Below, one piece after another: positions 5,188 to 28,566 of a DNA stretch of 64,000 nucleotides. How positions within the stretch are numbered: the stretch's first letter is position 1; each line of letters opens with the position of its first letter. The notes under the pieces are model-generated. The model was given only the letters and a program-made list of their open reading frames with translations. It had not been told where the DNA came from and made no database searches. The stretch is from a virus: positions 1-64,000 of IMG/VR virus record IMGVR_UViG_3300032309_002930, one strand, 5' to 3'. The translations under genes and the position numbers were made by a program.

Positions 5188-5231
5188 ATTAATTATTATA
5201 TAAGAAACAATAAAAAATCTCTAATAAATTT

Positions 5232-5318
5232 CGGGGCGAGTAGGATTCGAACCTACGAATGGATTTCTCCATCGGCAGTTTAGTAAACTGCTGTTTTAAA
5301 CCGCTCAACCATCGCCCC
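5232..5318 (-). tRNA. tRNA-Ser, anticodon ACU
   Basis: Acceptor GGGGCGA/TCGCCCC + G73; anticodon arm GCAGT-TTACTAA-ACTGC; long variable arm GATGG..CCATT; T arm GTAGG-TTCGAAT-CCTAC; no encoded CCA. Confidence 0.9.
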
Positions 5319-5320
5319 AT

Positions 5321-5392
5321 CTCCCAAACTAGGATTTGAACCTAGAACAGCCTCGTTAACAGCGAGGTGCTCTACCATTGAGCTATTTGGGA
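5321..5392 (-). tRNA. tRNA-Asn, anticodon GUU
   Basis: Acceptor TCCCAAA/TTTGGGA + G; D arm GCTC/GAGC; CCTCG-CTGTTAA-CGAGG; CTAGG-TTCAAAT-CCTAG; 2-nt spacer to tRNA-Ser; no CCA. Confidence 0.95.
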
Positions 5393-5398
5393 ATAAAT

Positions 5399-7896: not shown

Positions 7897-8328
7897 TTAC
7901 GGAGTTGTGCTGATGACTAGTGTTCCATTAACAGTAAAACCACTTCCTCCATATTGCCATCCAATTAAAGGAATTGATGATCCATTTGAAGCACAATATG
8001 CAGCCTGACCGTCATATGGAATCCAACTACCATACTCTTCATCATATACCTCCATATTAACTCTTAAAAGCCAATAGTTTTGGGAAAAAAAAAGCCTTCC
8101 AAATGATTGATTTTGCGCCCTCCATAAAGTATCGCTTTGCTTCTGATAAGGATTTATAAAATTACCATTTCTATATTGTTCATTTGGAACAAAGGTTAAT
8201 CCAGAAAAATAAAGATTAGGAGTAGAGAGGGGGAGTGTTGTTGGTGCAGCTGATATTCTTTTTCTAGGAACATATAAATTTATTCCTTTTTTAAAGTTTC
8301 CCAATTGGTTTGTTTTTTTGACTATCAT
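7897..8328 (-). CDS. putative virion accessory protein with shared N-terminal leader
   Basis: First 18 aa identical to 8341-8904; aromatic, beta-rich body. Confidence 0.6.
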   Translation of the reverse strand: MIVKKTNQLGNFKKGINLYVPRKRISAAPTTLPLSTPNLYFSGLTFVPNEQYRNGNFINPYQKQSDTLWRAQNQSFGRLFFSQNYWLLRVNMEVYDEEYGSWIPYDGQAAYCASNGSSIPLIGWQYGGSGFTVNGTLVISTTP

Positions 8329-8907
8329 ATAATTATATATTTAAAAACCATTTGTATTAGAGTTATAATAATAATATCCTAAACCGTTTGTTGTTTCTAC
8401 TATTGTTGGTGCTGAAAAACCAAGCGACATAACGTCATCGCCGCCACCCTCGCCATATTGTACTCTAATCGGATAATAAGTTCCAGCGACTAAACTTACT
8501 GGCTCTGAATCGACTCTATTCTCTGGATGACCATTGCCATTATTTATATTAGCGTTGGCAGTTGTAAAACCAGCAAGAGCATTTGCGCCAATCCAAAGAT
8601 AACTTGCATCATCAGAGCTTGTATAAAAAGTATAATTTTCAGTTGAACTTGCTTTGAAGTAGCCAAGCCATTGCCAACTATAATTCTCTGCAACATTAGT
8701 GAAACCATTTATACTAGTTAATTGATTAACGTCTCCATGAAGAGTCGCTGTATTAAACCAATTTACATTATCGTTAAAATACCCTTCGTATCTTTTACCA
8801 TACAATCCATTAGCATATGTGATTATAGATGCTCTCCTTTTTGGAGCATGTAAATTTATTCCTTTTTTAAAATTTCCCAATTGGTTTGTTTTTTTGACTA
8901 TCATATA
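8275..8907. repeat. 57-bp direct repeat (8275-8331 and 8851-8907)
   Basis: 56/57 identical; encodes MIVKKTNQLGNFKKGINL in both genes. Confidence 0.95.
8341..8904 (-). CDS. PA14/GLEYA-domain protein with shared leader
   Basis: YSWQWLGYF, YTFYTSSDDASYLWIG, YYPIRVQYGEGGG PA14 motifs. Confidence 0.85.
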   Translation of the reverse strand: MIVKKTNQLGNFKKGINLHAPKRRASIITYANGLYGKRYEGYFNDNVNWFNTATLHGDVNQLTSINGFTNVAENYSWQWLGYFKASSTENYTFYTSSDDASYLWIGANALAGFTTANANINNGNGHPENRVDSEPVSLVAGTYYPIRVQYGEGGGDDVMSLGFSAPTIVETTNGLGYYYYNSNTNGF

Positions 8908-11989: not shown

Positions 11990-12375
11990 GGGCCCGTAAT
12001 GGTTTCGATTTTAAGAAAATAAATTGAAATGCAAGTGGAGGTTGAATCGAGGACTCCTTAAAAAGTTTCGCTTATATTAACTGCCAAAACAGCTAAATAT
12101 AAAGGTCATATTTCTGCAAGAGTTTCTCTTGTTGAGATGGCCGAATCTGTAGCCTAAGTTACAGCGTGATATCCACGATACATCTACTGGAATATTGCGT
12201 TATTAGATGTTTGAGTATTATAAGTTTTTTTATTCTTATAGTATTCAATATTCAAAATAAAATAGCTAAGTATGTTTGTTCTTTATCTATACAAGGCTAA
12301 AAATAAAAAGAACTAAACTTGTAGTGTTTTAATTTAAATTTTTAAAAGACAGAGGTTCAATTCCTCTCGGGTCCA
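11990..12375 (+). ncRNA. ssrA: tmRNA
   Basis: 5' GGGCCCG pairs with 3' CGGGTCC-A giving G3:U70; 5' GGTTTCGA; T arm AGAGG-TTCAATT-CCTCT; resume context TTAACT-GCC; tag ORF 12083-12157. Confidence 0.92.
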
Positions 12376-24324: not shown

Positions 24325-26586
24325 TTATAGTTTACACGCACCACTTGAACAGTCTCTATCTTCTTTTTGGTCTAGTGATTGTTCTCTATCTCCATCGTCT
24401 GTGTTATTATAATAAAGACTAATTAATCCAAGACTATATGCATACATGATTTCTTTCATCACTTTAGCGTCTGGTAATATATTGTTTTCATAATGACTAT
24501 AATTGTAGTATACGTTAGTTGATATAGCCATGTCAATATATTTTTGAATTATTGCATTGATTTTTAATAATCCACTATTATCTTTAAGATCATAAGCTAA
24601 TTCATAATTATCATCATACTTACCAATTCCTGGAACCATTACTGGAAGTTTACCCATTTTACTAGTTTTATAAGTGATAAGACTACGAATAGGTTCAACT
24701 CCATTTGTAGAGGATTGAATAACCGAACTACTTTCACAAGGCATACAGGAAGATAATGTCGAGTGTCTTAAACCATGTTCTTTAATTTGTTTTCTTAGCT
24801 TTTCCCAATCAAGAGATAGTTTTCTTTTACATATTTCGTCTACTTTATCTTTATAAGTATCAATTGGTAATATGCCTTTAGAGTATTTTGTATGATTGAA
24901 TTTTTCGCACTTACCTTTTTCTTTGGCTAATTCTAGACTACTCTTTAAAAGGTAATATTGAAAGTATTCCATCCATTCATCAATTACTGGTAATGACTTA
25001 TCTGAACTATATTTTAATTCATTTTTAGCAAGAAAAGCTGCAAGATTAGTAATACCAATTCCAAGACTTCTACGTTTTTTAGCAAAATTTTCAGCAGCAA
25101 TATTAAAGTAATCTTGAAGTTCAATGATTTCATCAAGAAATCTTACGATAAGATCGCAAGTCTTTTCAAGATCCTGCCAGTTTTTTATTTCTAGCATATT
25201 TACTGCCGAAAGAATACACATACCGATTTCGCCTTCTTTGTCATTGTAATCGTTTAATGGAATAGTTGGATGGATAACTTCTGTGCAAAGATTACTCATT
25301 GTGACTTTATCATACCAAGCTCCATGCTCATTAGCATGATCTACATTAAGAATATAAATACGACCAGTTTCAACTCTTTCTTTAATTATCAAAGAGAATA
25401 ATTTTCTAGCAGACACTTTCTTTTTTAGTTTTAATTTTTTAGATTCACATTCTTTATATACTTTATCAAAGTCTTTAGTTCCCCAAGCTTCGTAAAGCTC
25501 TGGAACTTCTGAATTATTGAATAATGTGATATCTTCATCTTTCAAAACTCTATCATAGAATAATTTACTCATACCAACAGTATAATCAAGCTTACGAACT
25601 CGATTGTCATCTGTTCCAGCGTTATTCTTTAATACAACAATATCTTCAATTTCGTAATGCCACCATTGAATATTGCAAGTTGCGCTACCACCTCTTAAGC
25701 CATTTTGTTGCCAAGCTTTTACGCTACTTTCATAAATTTTTAAAAATGGAATTAAACCAGTATGAACAACTTCTCCATTCTTGATTGGTGATCCAATAGC
25801 TCTAATCTTACTAACATCAATACCAATTCCACATCTATTAGCTGTAGCTATACTAACAGCAGTTGCACTAGCTGTAATACTTTCTCTTGTGTCATCTACG
25901 CCAATTAAACAACAACTAGCATAATTCCTACTAGAAGTTCTTACTCCAGCCATTACTGGCGTTGGTAAATTAATTTTATGCTTACTAATAGCATCATAGA
26001 ATTTTCTTACATAATTCAATCTTGAATCTAATGGATATTTTGCAAAAGCATAAGATGCAATTAATATATAAGCAAATTGTGGAGTTTCATAAATTTGACC
26101 AGTGGTTCTATTTTTAATTAAATATTTATCGCAAAGTTGTTTAATTCCAGCATAAGTAAAAGTAAAATCTCTTTCGTGATCAATGAACTCTCCGATCTTA
26201 TTTATTTCGTCTTCGGAATAATTTTCTAAAATTGAACTATCGTATACTTTATTCTTTATGCCTTGATTTAAAAACTCTAATAGTCTTGGAGCATGTTTTC
26301 CTTTCCAAACGTCTTTTCTTAATTGATAATTTAAAAGTCTAGCAGCAACAAATTGATAATTTGGTTTTTCAGTTGAAATAAGATTAGCTGCACTTTCAAT
26401 CAATAGGTTGTGTATCTCTTTGCTTGTGATACCATCATGTATGTTTATTTTTGCGTTTATCTCTATATCTGTTAGACTTACTCCAGTATAACCATCAATT
26501 GCCCAATTGATAACTTTATTTATTTTCTCTACATCAAATTTTTCTGTTGCACCATTTCTTTTTTTTATAATAACGTTCTTGCTCAT
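24325..26586 (-). CDS. nrdA: ribonucleotide reductase class Ia alpha subunit with ATP cone
   Basis: KKRNG ATP cone, PTPVMAG, ASCC, SNLCTE, MPCESSS, C-terminal CSSGAC. Confidence 0.97.
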   Translation of the reverse strand: MSKNVIIKKRNGATEKFDVEKINKVINWAIDGYTGVSLTDIEINAKINIHDGITSKEIHNLLIESAANLISTEKPNYQFVAARLLNYQLRKDVWKGKHAPRLLEFLNQGIKNKVYDSSILENYSEDEINKIGEFIDHERDFTFTYAGIKQLCDKYLIKNRTTGQIYETPQFAYILIASYAFAKYPLDSRLNYVRKFYDAISKHKINLPTPVMAGVRTSSRNYASCCLIGVDDTRESITASATAVSIATANRCGIGIDVSKIRAIGSPIKNGEVVHTGLIPFLKIYESSVKAWQQNGLRGGSATCNIQWWHYEIEDIVVLKNNAGTDDNRVRKLDYTVGMSKLFYDRVLKDEDITLFNNSEVPELYEAWGTKDFDKVYKECESKKLKLKKKVSARKLFSLIIKERVETGRIYILNVDHANEHGAWYDKVTMSNLCTEVIHPTIPLNDYNDKEGEIGMCILSAVNMLEIKNWQDLEKTCDLIVRFLDEIIELQDYFNIAAENFAKKRRSLGIGITNLAAFLAKNELKYSSDKSLPVIDEWMEYFQYYLLKSSLELAKEKGKCEKFNHTKYSKGILPIDTYKDKVDEICKRKLSLDWEKLRKQIKEHGLRHSTLSSCMPCESSSVIQSSTNGVEPIRSLITYKTSKMGKLPVMVPGIGKYDDNYELAYDLKDNSGLLKINAIIQKYIDMAISTNVYYNYSHYENNILPDAKVMKEIMYAYSLGLISLYYNNTDDGDREQSLDQKEDRDCSSGACKL

Positions 26587-26724
26587 ATTTTCTTTCTAGC
26601 GTAAAGAATAGTTTACAGTATTTTTAATTTTTATAAAAGAAAAATAACTATATTAATGTTAATAACTTCATATCTTAATAAACAAGTGTACTGATCTAAT
26701 ATCTTTTCCTAATAAATATTTCCC

Positions 26725-27004
26725 AATGAGCTCCTTCAAAGCAGAGCTTTCCCTGTGTTTTACCACAAGTTCGCTTGAGCCGTTAGTTCAATTTCCCAAT
26801 TGAGTCCATAAGCCTTTCGGCTCCCTAACACTTATCGGATGTCGGTAGGATCATCCATCGCGTGTTAGCCCTTTCACCTACACTCCCAGAATTTCTTCTG
26901 GTTTCTCAGGTCGCAAGCTCTGTTAGCGTTGCCTGACGTTAAGAACTAATCTAACTCACCATTTTAAGGAGTATGGCAAACCTTTTCGCCTTTCAGCGAG
27001 ATGT
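26725..27004 (-). ncRNA. unassigned highly structured RNA (~280 nt)
   Basis: 111/240 GC in 26761-27000 within a very AT-rich genome; several GAAA-capped hairpins, long-range closing stems, two possible pseudoknots; dedicated promoter. Confidence 0.75.
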
Positions 27005-27010
27005 CGTATT

Positions 27011-27039
27011 ATAATACATCAATAAATATATTTTGTCAA
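27011..27039 (-). promoter_or_regulatory. sigma70-type promoter for the structured RNA
   Basis: TTGACA (27034-27039) N17 TATTAT (27011-27016). Confidence 0.75.
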
Positions 27040-27046
27040 ATAAAAT

Positions 27047-27727
27047 TTATTCAATCATTTTATAGTAATCATGATCAAAATGTGGATTTAAATTTATTAT
27101 TCCATTTTCTTTTATACAAAGTTTTTCAGCCCAATCATAGATTTCTTTATTAGTTCTATTTCCCATTCCAGAAACATGATAAGTATTCATTCCCCATCTA
27201 TATATCATAGTAGGATTTTTTAAAGATGTGAAGACTTTAGCATTATAATTACCAAAAGTTCTCATATCTTCAAGATAAGTTGTATCATTGCATACAAGTT
27301 TTTTTAAATATTTTTGAGTATAAATAACACCAGTGTTATAATTTCCGCTAGCACCCTTAAACTTATTATCTACAAAATAGTAATGAGCACTACTTCGATA
27401 TATATCATATCCAGGATTTTCTTTTATTGTTTCTTTTGATAAATTGACTGCATTACTAGCTAGCAAATCATCATCCTCCAACCTATAAATATAATCATTC
27501 TTACATTCTGTATAACCATAGTGATATTTACTCTCAATAGAGGCAAATCTTTCTTTTAAATTTACAATTTTAATATTTGGATGATTTAAAATATATTCTA
27601 CATTTTTATTATCATTAATAATAACCATCTCATCAGAATCATTTAAATTTTTTTGATTTAAAAAAGAATATATAGCTTCTTCTAATAGATGTTTCCTTTG
27701 ATATGTTATAGTAAGAAAGGAAATCAT
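27047..27727 (-). CDS. GT2 glycosyltransferase
   Basis: ISFLTITYQR..LEEAI.SF..Q, LEDDDL. Confidence 0.8.
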   Translation of the reverse strand: MISFLTITYQRKHLLEEAIYSFLNQKNLNDSDEMVIINDNKNVEYILNHPNIKIVNLKERFASIESKYHYGYTECKNDYIYRLEDDDLLASNAVNLSKETIKENPGYDIYRSSAHYYFVDNKFKGASGNYNTGVIYTQKYLKKLVCNDTTYLEDMRTFGNYNAKVFTSLKNPTMIYRWGMNTYHVSGMGNRTNKEIYDWAEKLCIKENGIINLNPHFDHDYYKMIE

Positions 27728-27735
27728 ACTATATT

Positions 27736-27763
27736 TTACACATATTTGTTGATTTTAGTGTAA
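27736..27763. promoter_or_regulatory. divergent pair of GTGTAA motifs
   Basis: Minus-strand GTGTAA at 27736-27741 and plus-strand GTGTAA at 27758-27763, each exactly 8 nt from an ATG (27727, 27772). Confidence 0.65.
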
Positions 27764-27771
27764 TGCTATAT

Positions 27772-28566
27772 ATGCCAATACCTCAACCAAACGACAATGA
27801 AAAACAAAACGATTATATGGGTCGTTGCATGCATTTTTTAAATAAAAAAGGCGAAACAAAAAGACCTCAAAATCAACAAGTTGCAATTTGCCTTAATACT
27901 TTTAAAGGACCAAAAAAGAAAAGTAAAGCAGAAGTTGAGATTGATTTTTCCGAACAAATTAAAAATCTGAAAAAAGAAGAAATCAAAACAGAAGAAGCTC
28001 CAAAAGTTGAAGCTAAAGTTGAAGAACCAATAAATACTGCTGTAACTGCACCAGCACCAGAAGTTAAAGCAAAAGAAGTAAAAATAGAAGAAGCATCAGC
28101 TTCTTGTGGTAAGCCAAATTGTGGTTCAGTTCAACAATTCGAAGAAATAAAAACCGAAGAAGTTAAAATTGATGAGACGAAAGCAGAAACTGATGGCAAG
28201 GGCGAATTGATTCAAACAACCCTTCTTCAAATGCAACATCAATATAAAATTCTTCATTGGCAAACTCAATCATTCTCACAGCATAAATCATTTGATGAAA
28301 TCGTAAGTAGCTTAATGGAAAATACTGATGAATTTATTGAAACTTACATGGGTAAATATAGTAGAGTAATTGCAGCTGGAACTTTTAATATTACTTTAGC
28401 TAATTATAAAGATACAGATTTCATGGCTCTTACAGATAAATATATTGAATTTTTAATTGGCTTATCTAATATACTTGACGCTTCAAAAGATTCAGATCTA
28501 TTAAATATTAGAGATGAAATTCTTGGTTCATTAAATCAATTAAAATATCTATTAACACTTCAATAA
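27772..28566 (+). CDS. modular protein with C-terminal Dps/ferritin-like domain
   Basis: MPIPQP..DYMGRCM..QQVAIC module, EIDFS, E/K/A/P linker, HWQT.SFSQHKSFDE..DEFIETYMGKY..LLNIRDEI. Confidence 0.75.
   Translation: MPIPQPNDNEKQNDYMGRCMHFLNKKGETKRPQNQQVAICLNTFKGPKKKSKAEVEIDFSEQIKNLKKEEIKTEEAPKVEAKVEEPINTAVTAPAPEVKAKEVKIEEASASCGKPNCGSVQQFEEIKTEEVKIDETKAETDGKGELIQTTLLQMQHQYKILHWQTQSFSQHKSFDEIVSSLMENTDEFIETYMGKYSRVIAAGTFNITLANYKDTDFMALTDKYIEFLIGLSNILDASKDSDLLNIRDEILGSLNQLKYLLTLQ

Follow-up and report, generated by a model that had tools for sequence, protein, structure and literature searches.

The window analysed here, positions 1–64,000 of IMG/VR record IMGVR_UViG_3300032309_002930 (full record 86.9 kb, 28% GC), raises the question of what occupies the GC-rich gap directly ahead of nrdA in this phage DNA. 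An initial annotation, made from the letters of the window, had described a compact multi-stem RNA at this position and had proposed either a ribozyme or trans-acting noncoding RNA (ncRNA), or a leader regulating ribonucleotide reductase (RNR). The gap holds the gene of what we call the twin-box RNA, and the evidence firmly establishes a free-standing gene for a structured and uncatalogued RNA, with its own sigma-70-like (host-type) promoter. The RNA is retained in a clade of AT-rich phages from lakes, none of them cultured, and carries two short boxes whose sequence differs between phages and is the same within each RNA.

A GC-rich island with its own promoter

Between 26761 and 27000, 111 of the 240 positions are G or C, which exactly reproduces the 46% GC noted initially and compares with a window average of 28.2%; sliding-window values are 0.47–0.48 within the island and 0.21–0.33 in its flanks. 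The flanking genes, both on the minus strand, are a family-2 glycosyltransferase gene (27047–27727) and nrdA (24325–26586), the latter followed by nrdB. No conserved reading frame was found in the GC-rich gap before nrdA, and the single-sequence fold has a predicted energy of -88.1 kcal/mol; shuffled versions gave -73.5 ± 4.9 (z -2.96), and none of the 100 reached so low a value. The gene and its promoter are as follows:

26718–27004, minus strand: twin-box RNA gene, approximately 287 nucleotides (nt), from a presumed start at the conserved 5′ end ACAU to a predicted 3′ end at the end of box 2
27011–27039, minus strand: sigma-70-type promoter, with TTGACA at 27034–27039, a 17-nt spacer and TATTAT at 27011–27016

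This promoter, which the initial annotation had pointed out, agrees with the consensus at 11 of 12 positions and ranks first among the 18 promoter-like sites in 26000–28000.

Relatives and distribution of the RNA

An NrdA protein scan of IMG/VR yielded 80 loci, in 19 of which the RNA was detected by blastn. A covariance model (R1), built from 18 aligned copies, recovered these 19 at more than 300 bits and added 27 full-length copies at 30–57 bits, with E values of 1e-7 or better. The window copy matches R1 at 330 bits, which it does by construction because the R1 alignment includes it; the independent evidence is the fold that it has in common with its relatives. Together with four more contigs in which the copy is cut by the locus end or lies farther off (L023/G012, L043, L057/G022 and L015/G009), at least 50 of the 80 contigs carry the RNA.

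The sequences split into five subgroups, labelled A–E in this analysis, with the window in subgroup A. The window copy has the features that define the family, namely the promoter and the ACAU end, the H2–H9 core with pseudoknot PK2 described below, and two identical 10-nt boxes. Among 15 representatives covering all five subgroups, the 5′ end ACAU(A/C), in the forms ACAUAG and ACAUC, is kept in every one, and 13 of them also have TTGACAAA and, some 17 nt further on, a hexamer resembling TAtAaT, an arrangement not evident in L059 and L068.

The DNA comes from lake and other freshwater metagenomes in 13 studies. Neither the RNA nor the accompanying phage transfer-messenger RNA (tmRNA) gave a blastn match among 50,697 phage records, and the closest NrdA proteins of isolates, at 53% identity, belong to Pelagibacter myophages. 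A pattern scan of 185,579 GTDB species genomes, with a pattern covering subgroups A and E only, returned nine stretches, none of which matches R1. The same kind of scan returned 42 viral stretches, 27 of them from the twin-box family, and 77 metagenome stretches, of which 44 were run against R1 and 25 matched (2 cut by contig ends); the 33 stretches left out of this run were mostly at the 50-nt match length typical of unrelated contigs. No new box type appeared among the metagenome matches. A first-pass R1 search of 34 records gave two matches and missed true copies in G009 and G022, later recovered by cmsearch on DNA (E 1e-13 to 1e-90), so its tally says nothing on absence.

The other 15 viral-scan stretches are chance pattern matches in unrelated marine phage contigs of about 51% GC (L091, L094, L097, L099, L100, L103, L104, L107, L108, L110, L112, L114, L117, L120 and L121). 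These contigs contain arrays of GGTAGGTGCA-type repeats adjoining AAGTCATTGATTTATAA motifs, which look like iterons.

Twin boxes that covary in identity

The RNA ends in two similar modules, each comprising a hairpin, a short linker, the motif RGA-N(1-2)-YUC and a 10-nt purine-rich box. Module 1 is located in a junction inside the core and module 2 at the 3′ end. An extra nucleotide always precedes box 1, being A, or G in L051 and L096. In the window the two modules comprise:

26810–26823, minus strand: H9, GAGCC-GAAA-GGCUU, the module 1 hairpin; its length varies between subgroups and its pairing is kept
26791–26807, minus strand: module 1 tail, GGACUC-A-AUUGGGAAAU, with the box 1 core at 26791–26800
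26738–26769, minus strand: variable hairpin H10 and small hairpin H11 (AAAGC/GCUUU), with AGCUC/GAGCU as an alternative fold
26718–26734, minus strand: module 2 tail, GGAGCUC-AUUGGGAAAU, with the box 2 core at 26718–26727; GGAGCU can pair with AGGUUU at 26978–26983

An exact box repeat of 10–13 nt, with the copies 65–75 nt apart (73 nt in the window), is present in all 53 distinct sequences (57 hits), and identical boxes were also found in 22 of 22 distinct metagenome hits, many of them from the same contigs. The box core occurs in eight variants: AUUGGGAAGU, AUUGGGAAAU, AUUGGGAAAA, AUUGGGAAGA, ACUGGGAAGU, AUUGGAAAGU, AAAGAAAAGU and AGGGAAAAAG. Close relatives capture the change from one variant to another. 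Over a 330-column alignment, L065 differs from its eight closest relatives at two positions only, and these are mirrored U-to-C changes in the two boxes. L069 has eight private differences, among them a mirrored pair of G-to-A changes and two changes that compensate each other in the usual way in helix H2. The mirrored changes, and the identity seen in all 53 sequences, mean that the two boxes evolve as the halves of a base pair do, under identity instead of complementarity. No third column of the RNA was found to change together with the boxes.

Fold of the RNA

Covariation among the collected homologues supports a multi-helix fold. In a MAFFT alignment of subgroup A, 97.1% of the cells are paired, compared with 34–48% when the partners are slid along the alignment, and 24 of the 74 pairs have changes on both sides, compared with 1–4 when slid. 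For all subgroups, in a 30-sequence MAFFT alignment that is not fitted to structure and is partly misaligned in the variable arms, 83.3% of the cells are paired (37–48% slid) and 46 of the 74 pairs are compensatory (14–25 slid). The comparison shows a closed multi-helix core with at least one pseudoknot, composed of the following elements:

26986–26999, minus strand: H1, the 5′ hairpin UCGC-UGAAAG-GCGA; 4 of 4 pairs changed on both sides among relatives
26958–26977, minus strand: H2, hairpin GCCAU/AUGGU with ACUCC in the loop; in subgroup A 100% paired, with 3 of 5 pairs compensatory
26777–26957, minus strand: core, closed by H3 (GAGUU 26953–26957 with GGCUC 26777–26781) and H4 (UUAGUUC 26943–26949 with GAACUAA 26783–26789)
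26906–26936, minus strand: H5, with outer stem UCAGG/CCUGA, a conserved CAA/A internal loop and an inner CGC/GCG stem
26886–26901, minus strand: H6, CCAGAA-GAAA-UUCUGG; 3 of 6 pairs compensatory, and far longer in other subgroups
26825–26868, minus strand: H7, CUAACAC/GUGUUAG, around H8, GGAUG/CAUCC, with CCUAC in the H8 loop
26845–26881, minus strand: pseudoknot PK2, GUAGG (26877–26881) with CCUAC (26845–26849)

The loop and the stem length of H1 vary between subgroups. Across all subgroups, H2 is 98% paired with 5 of 5 pairs compensatory, and H8 is 94% paired with 4 of 5. H3 and H4 are both 100% paired in subgroup A, with compensatory changes in 2 of 5 and 5 of 7 pairs, respectively. The outer stem of H5 includes a compensatory pair, as well as an entire base pair that is deleted in 9 of 18 sequences, and the inner stem changes from CGUC/GACG to UGUC/GACA in other subgroups. 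Most of the stems read from the window alone (the 5′ hairpin, UUAGUUC/GAACUAA, UCAGG/CCUGA, CCAGAA/UUCUGG, CUAACAC/GUGUUAG, GGAUG/CAUCC and GAGCC/GGCUU) are therefore borne out by relatives.

One of the two pseudoknots proposed in the initial annotation stands. PK2 is 94.7% paired in the 30 sequences, in the alignment that is not structure-fitted, and covaries through the variants CCUAC/GUAGG, GCUAC/GUAGC, GCCAC/GUGGC and UCCAC/GUGGA, with ACUAC/GUAGU in L068 in a model-fitted alignment. The other, AUACUCCU/GGGAGUGU (ACUC/GAGU), has no compensatory change and fails outside subgroup A: it is 88.9% paired in that subgroup, where it is broken in 3 sequences, and 62.5% paired across all subgroups.

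For the 3′ domain, two mutually exclusive folds are predicted. The closing stem originally drawn, AGGUUUGC/GCGAACUU, has partial support, being paired in 72.9% of subgroup-A cells, but competes with a rival closing helix, AGGUUU/RGAGCU, that is 100% paired. Likewise, the hairpin AGCUC/GAGCU is 94.4% paired but shows zero covariation and competes with AAAGC/GCUUU, which is 98.9% paired. Both rival helices are almost invariant in subgroup A.

A possible reader of the boxes

Duplex scans of seven representatives found no recurrent box complement in the RNA itself or in its flanks, taken as 150 nt upstream and 400 nt downstream. In three phage tmRNAs scanned for a box complement, the best site was unchanged whatever the box type. 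A pattern search of the window for the complement gave 16 hits against 12.2 expected, and the 87-kb record, searched with up to two mismatches, contains no other exact site. Exact box 10-mers in five records are at chance level, with no excess copies. With no complement in the RNA, its flanks, the tmRNA or the 87-kb record, and no third co-changing column, these scans argue that the partner is not in cis.

The reading that we prefer, with a probability of roughly 0.35, is that the twin-box RNA is a trans-acting scaffold displaying two identical single-stranded boxes to one outside partner. The core would be a rigid scaffold that presents both boxes as single strands, and two copies of a single partner, encoded elsewhere than in the RNA, would be engaged in trans; most simply, this partner would be a host-determined nucleic acid or RNA-binding factor. 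If this partner differed between hosts, both boxes would have to change together; reading of both by one outside partner would thus explain mirrored changes that need only two mutations on the phage side. The RNA might then be a decoy or an antisense-type regulator made early in infection, rather than a regulator of nrdA.

Several points weigh against this interpretation. The trans step is reached by exclusion, since no partner was found. Direct contact between the boxes or a copying process would explain the mirrored single-base changes of very close relatives just as well, and a link between box variants and hosts is a conjecture. As for the 3′ end of the RNA, no terminator-like site was found in the window, in seven of seven sequences the stretch behind box 2 shows no more stable folding than shuffles, and a weak AU-rich hairpin with a U run follows box 2 only in some subgroup-B copies. 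No RNA run is listed for the DNA stretch.

Three candidates for a reader or a role of the boxes were rejected. The 11-mer CAAUUGGGAAA, identical to box 1, is found again within the 5′ part of the coding sequence of two neighbouring minus-strand genes (7897–8328 and 8341–8904), where it encodes Q-L-G-N of a shared leader peptide. We judge the match a coincidence: relatives encode the peptide with different synonymous codons, and in four other group-A contigs neither the two CAAUUGGGAAA-bearing genes nor any extra box copies are present. Complementarity between the H1 loop CCCAAUUA and the box is limited to one subgroup, and the loop stays the same when the box changes. A hidden open reading frame from box 1 to box 2 is open in L019 and closed in the window copy (translated by eye).

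As a separate observation, the genes at 7897–8328 and 8341–8904 have the N-terminal peptide MIVKKTNQLGNFKKGINL in common, and relatives keep their paired arrangement.

A possible role in replication and copying of the boxes

It is possible, if doubtful, that the covariation of identity is a constraint undescribed for any RNA family, caused either by (a) a copy of one box re-pairing with the other box or by (b) a parallel helix of like with like. The first of these belongs to an explanation that we consider unlikely, in which the RNA is linked to replication: an RNA–DNA hybrid near an origin would prime phage DNA synthesis, and the copy of one box would re-pair with the other by strand transfer or copy choice. 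The purine-rich, 10-nt boxes and the lack of a terminator in the window are consistent with a primer, and an identity constraint satisfied by two changes fits a complement derived from the RNA itself. The cumulative GC-skew minimum and the main transcription divergence lie within 1–2 kb of the RNA gene in three of five records (G000, G009 and G039), despite differing gene neighbourhoods, but the skew minimum is 4–5 kb off in G040 and approximately 8 kb off in G022. Because skew in these phages follows the direction of transcription, this is a weak test and the support is weak at best. Moreover, the two gene layouts described below have no conserved DNA in common downstream of box 2, extra box copies are not above chance, and a reverse transcriptase (PF00078) was found in none of five records, which are 57–87% complete.

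Association with tmRNA

The RNA gene and a one-piece tmRNA gene are transcribed divergently in subgroups B and C. ARAGORN detected a complete tmRNA 120–774 nt from the RNA 5′ end in ten loci (L019, L067, L032, L035, L007, L026, L016, L124, L126 and L134), usually with a gap of about 295 nt, and a tmRNA cut by the locus end in one further locus (L040). The remaining 13 loci of this layout end 266–1,155 nt past the RNA and are therefore uninformative on tmRNA. A tmRNA is present in all six RNA-bearing records examined for both, at a distance of 0.3 kb in G009 and G022 and of 14.6–18.4 kb in G000, G039, G040 and G041. The complete 217-kb G030, a more distant relative with an NrdA 79% identical, has neither tmRNA nor twin-box RNA.

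This co-occurrence and proximity could point to an RNA that partners the phage tmRNA or translation, for instance by mimicking a single-stranded region that binds the ribosome or S1, a role that we regard as quite unlikely. The separation of 14.6–18.4 kb in four records speaks against it, and no co-varying pairing between box and tmRNA exists, because subgroups A and B differ in their boxes and have almost the same sequence in the 5′ half of the tmRNA. The association is suggestive, and may reflect the clustering to which phage RNA genes tend anyway, or one event at the level of the clade. An arrangement different from the present tmRNA–RNA pairing, namely a two-piece phage tmRNA that has a glutamine riboswitch, is described in the accessible part of PMC9004378.

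Other genes for small RNAs were seen in these phages. The window encodes a one-piece tmRNA on the plus strand (11990–12375), with a 24-codon tag ending in ESVA, close variants of which adjoin the twin-box RNA in related phages. It also contains adjacent tRNA-Ser (ACU) and tRNA-Asn (GUU) genes on the minus strand (5231–5393), and the same pair is found in G009. G030 (L137–L148) has 17 tRNA genes in clusters (18 ARAGORN calls, one tRNA-Leu lying in the overlap of two stretches).

Possible contact between the boxes or catalysis

Direct contact between the boxes, for instance in a parallel-stranded duplex of like with like, would turn identity into a folding constraint. It would account for the covariation of identity rather than complementarity in 53 of 53 sequences and for the lack of a third partner that changes with the boxes, and both strands run in the same direction and are purine-rich. 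Purine-rich strands favour parallel like-with-like pairing in vitro. The boxes contain U and C positions, however, and we know of no precedent for a natural parallel helix of ten like-with-like pairs, which makes this explanation improbable.

A ribozyme or self-processing RNA, in which the core cuts or joins at two equivalent sites, seems similarly improbable. An intricate conserved core with a pseudoknot and GNRA loops, two equivalent sites that each follow a hairpin, and the one extra nucleotide that is always present at box 1 would suit such an activity, but no Rfam ribozyme family matches and the RNA contains no internal guide complementary to the boxes.

Gene order relative to nrdA

Among the 46 of 80 nrdA loci with a full-length copy, 25, in subgroups A, D and E, have the RNA ahead of nrdA and on its strand, and 21, in subgroups B and C, have it past nrdB, on the other strand and converging with the nrdAB operon; homologues therefore do not always precede nrdA. 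In the window and 24 of the 46 related loci, the RNA ends approximately 100–130 nt before nrdA on the same strand. In L059 it lies 1.2 kb upstream of nrdA, and in G009 the two genes are separated by 10 kb. In the layout with the RNA ahead of nrdA, seen in the window, L036, L018, L046 and L030, the spacer between them has conserved elements of its own:

26587–26717, minus strand: AT-rich spacer to nrdA, with GTACAC, TTTTTCTTTT and AATACTGTAA conserved in relatives of the same layout; outside the RNA fold

This spacer folds no more stably than shuffles (z +2.36), and its elements look like a candidate phage-specific promoter or control region of nrdA itself. A cis-acting leader or riboswitch controlling nrdA, the RNR option of the initial annotation, would fit the same-strand position shortly before nrdA and the lack of a terminator between the two, but it is largely refuted by gene order, both convergent and distant, and with separate promoter-like elements before nrdA and zero riboswitch family matches it is almost certainly wrong.

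Comparison with known RNAs

A search with the 4227 models of Rfam 15 found, at gathering score, only the tmRNA and two tRNAs in the window, all elsewhere. Up to an E value of 10, matches in 26400–27300 are at chance level (best E 0.55), and the divergent copy in L067 likewise has chance matches only. The models searched include those for RNase P, group I introns and cobalamin riboswitches, signatures of which had been judged absent by eye. Because a compact, promoter-led and pseudoknotted RNA matches no Rfam 15 family, the trans-acting ncRNA branch of the original proposal stands, and its tertiary structure is supported by PK2 and the covariation of the fold.

Individual systems were rejected on the following grounds. 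No bacterial RNase P model reaches an E value of 10, and in a by-eye comparison the helix order departs from what we take to be that of RNase P. Neither a cobalamin riboswitch nor any other riboswitch upstream of nrd genes is compatible with the lack of a model match and the 21 of 46 copies convergent with nrdAB. A group I intron has no RF00028 match, and the element lies between genes with its own promoter. GOLLD, ROOL, raiA and HEARO have no model match. In a CRISPR mini-array or RNA anti-CRISPR, at least two full-length repeats of about 28–37 nt, hairpin included, would be identical, against the observed 10–13 nt, and the hairpins before the two boxes differ; the single CRISPR-repeat match, in the L067 copy, is on the opposite strand (E 0.95). 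A retron or other RNA associated with a reverse transcriptase is disfavoured by the lack of PF00078 in the five records noted above.

A literature search found no description of the twin-box RNA. The accessible part of PMC10690425 reports candidate RNAs from IMG/VR of 29–151 bases, and pieces of the twin-box RNA could be in its supplementary tables. The closest analogues in character are the GOLLD (RF01998), ROOL (RF03087), OLE and raiA-motif RNAs, which are free-standing, elaborate, of unknown function, phage-borne and often near tRNA or tmRNA genes, and which are the subject of a cryo-EM paper (bioRxiv 10.1101/2024.12.08.627333). The twin-box RNA differs from them in being smaller, at approximately 290 nt, and has no sequence or structure match to them. 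To our knowledge, twin identical boxes have not been described for these families.

Other systems resemble it in single respects. Like the ColE1 RNA II primer and the T4 oriF and oriG R-loop transcripts, it is a promoter-led structured transcript with purine-rich stretches and no clear terminator, near the skew minimum in three of five records, but the position of its gene relative to the skew minimum is not constant and the downstream DNA is not conserved. The ColE1 and T4 primers have no twin identical boxes. Coronavirus leader and body transcription-regulating sequences, retroviral R repeats and duplicated polypurine tracts also consist of two same-sense short copies kept identical, but these occur in RNA viruses or retroviruses, which have an RNA-copying polymerase of their own, unlike the present DNA phages, in which no reverse transcriptase was found. 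The boxB elements of lambdoid nutL and nutR are two near-identical RNA sites per phage that vary between phages to match a phage-specific partner; nut sites, however, are hairpins on two transcripts that act in cis on RNA polymerase, whereas the twin boxes are predicted to be single-stranded parts of one RNA. Sponge RNAs of the CsrB/RsmZ type have repeated short, purine-rich, GGA-containing sites after hairpins, but the twin-box RNA has two sites only, a conserved pseudoknotted core and a variable box sequence (GGA to AGA in several members).

Implications

An intricate RNA of approximately 290 nt that is found throughout a clade of abundant lake phages and is uncatalogued likely has a specific role during infection. 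Its twin boxes are a sharp and directly testable handle on that function, and a further lead comes from the recurrent association of the RNA with a phage tmRNA gene. If the RNA proves to be only another 'ornate RNA of unknown function', it is still a well-defined family with a solid structure model. Should the identity of the boxes be maintained through a copy of one re-pairing with the other, this would be the first DNA-phage RNA with copy-choice or strand-transfer priming without a reverse transcriptase, and either that or a parallel like-with-like helix would be a new mechanism. Once found, the reader of the boxes would reveal a new phage–host RNA interaction or a new mode of priming or folding.

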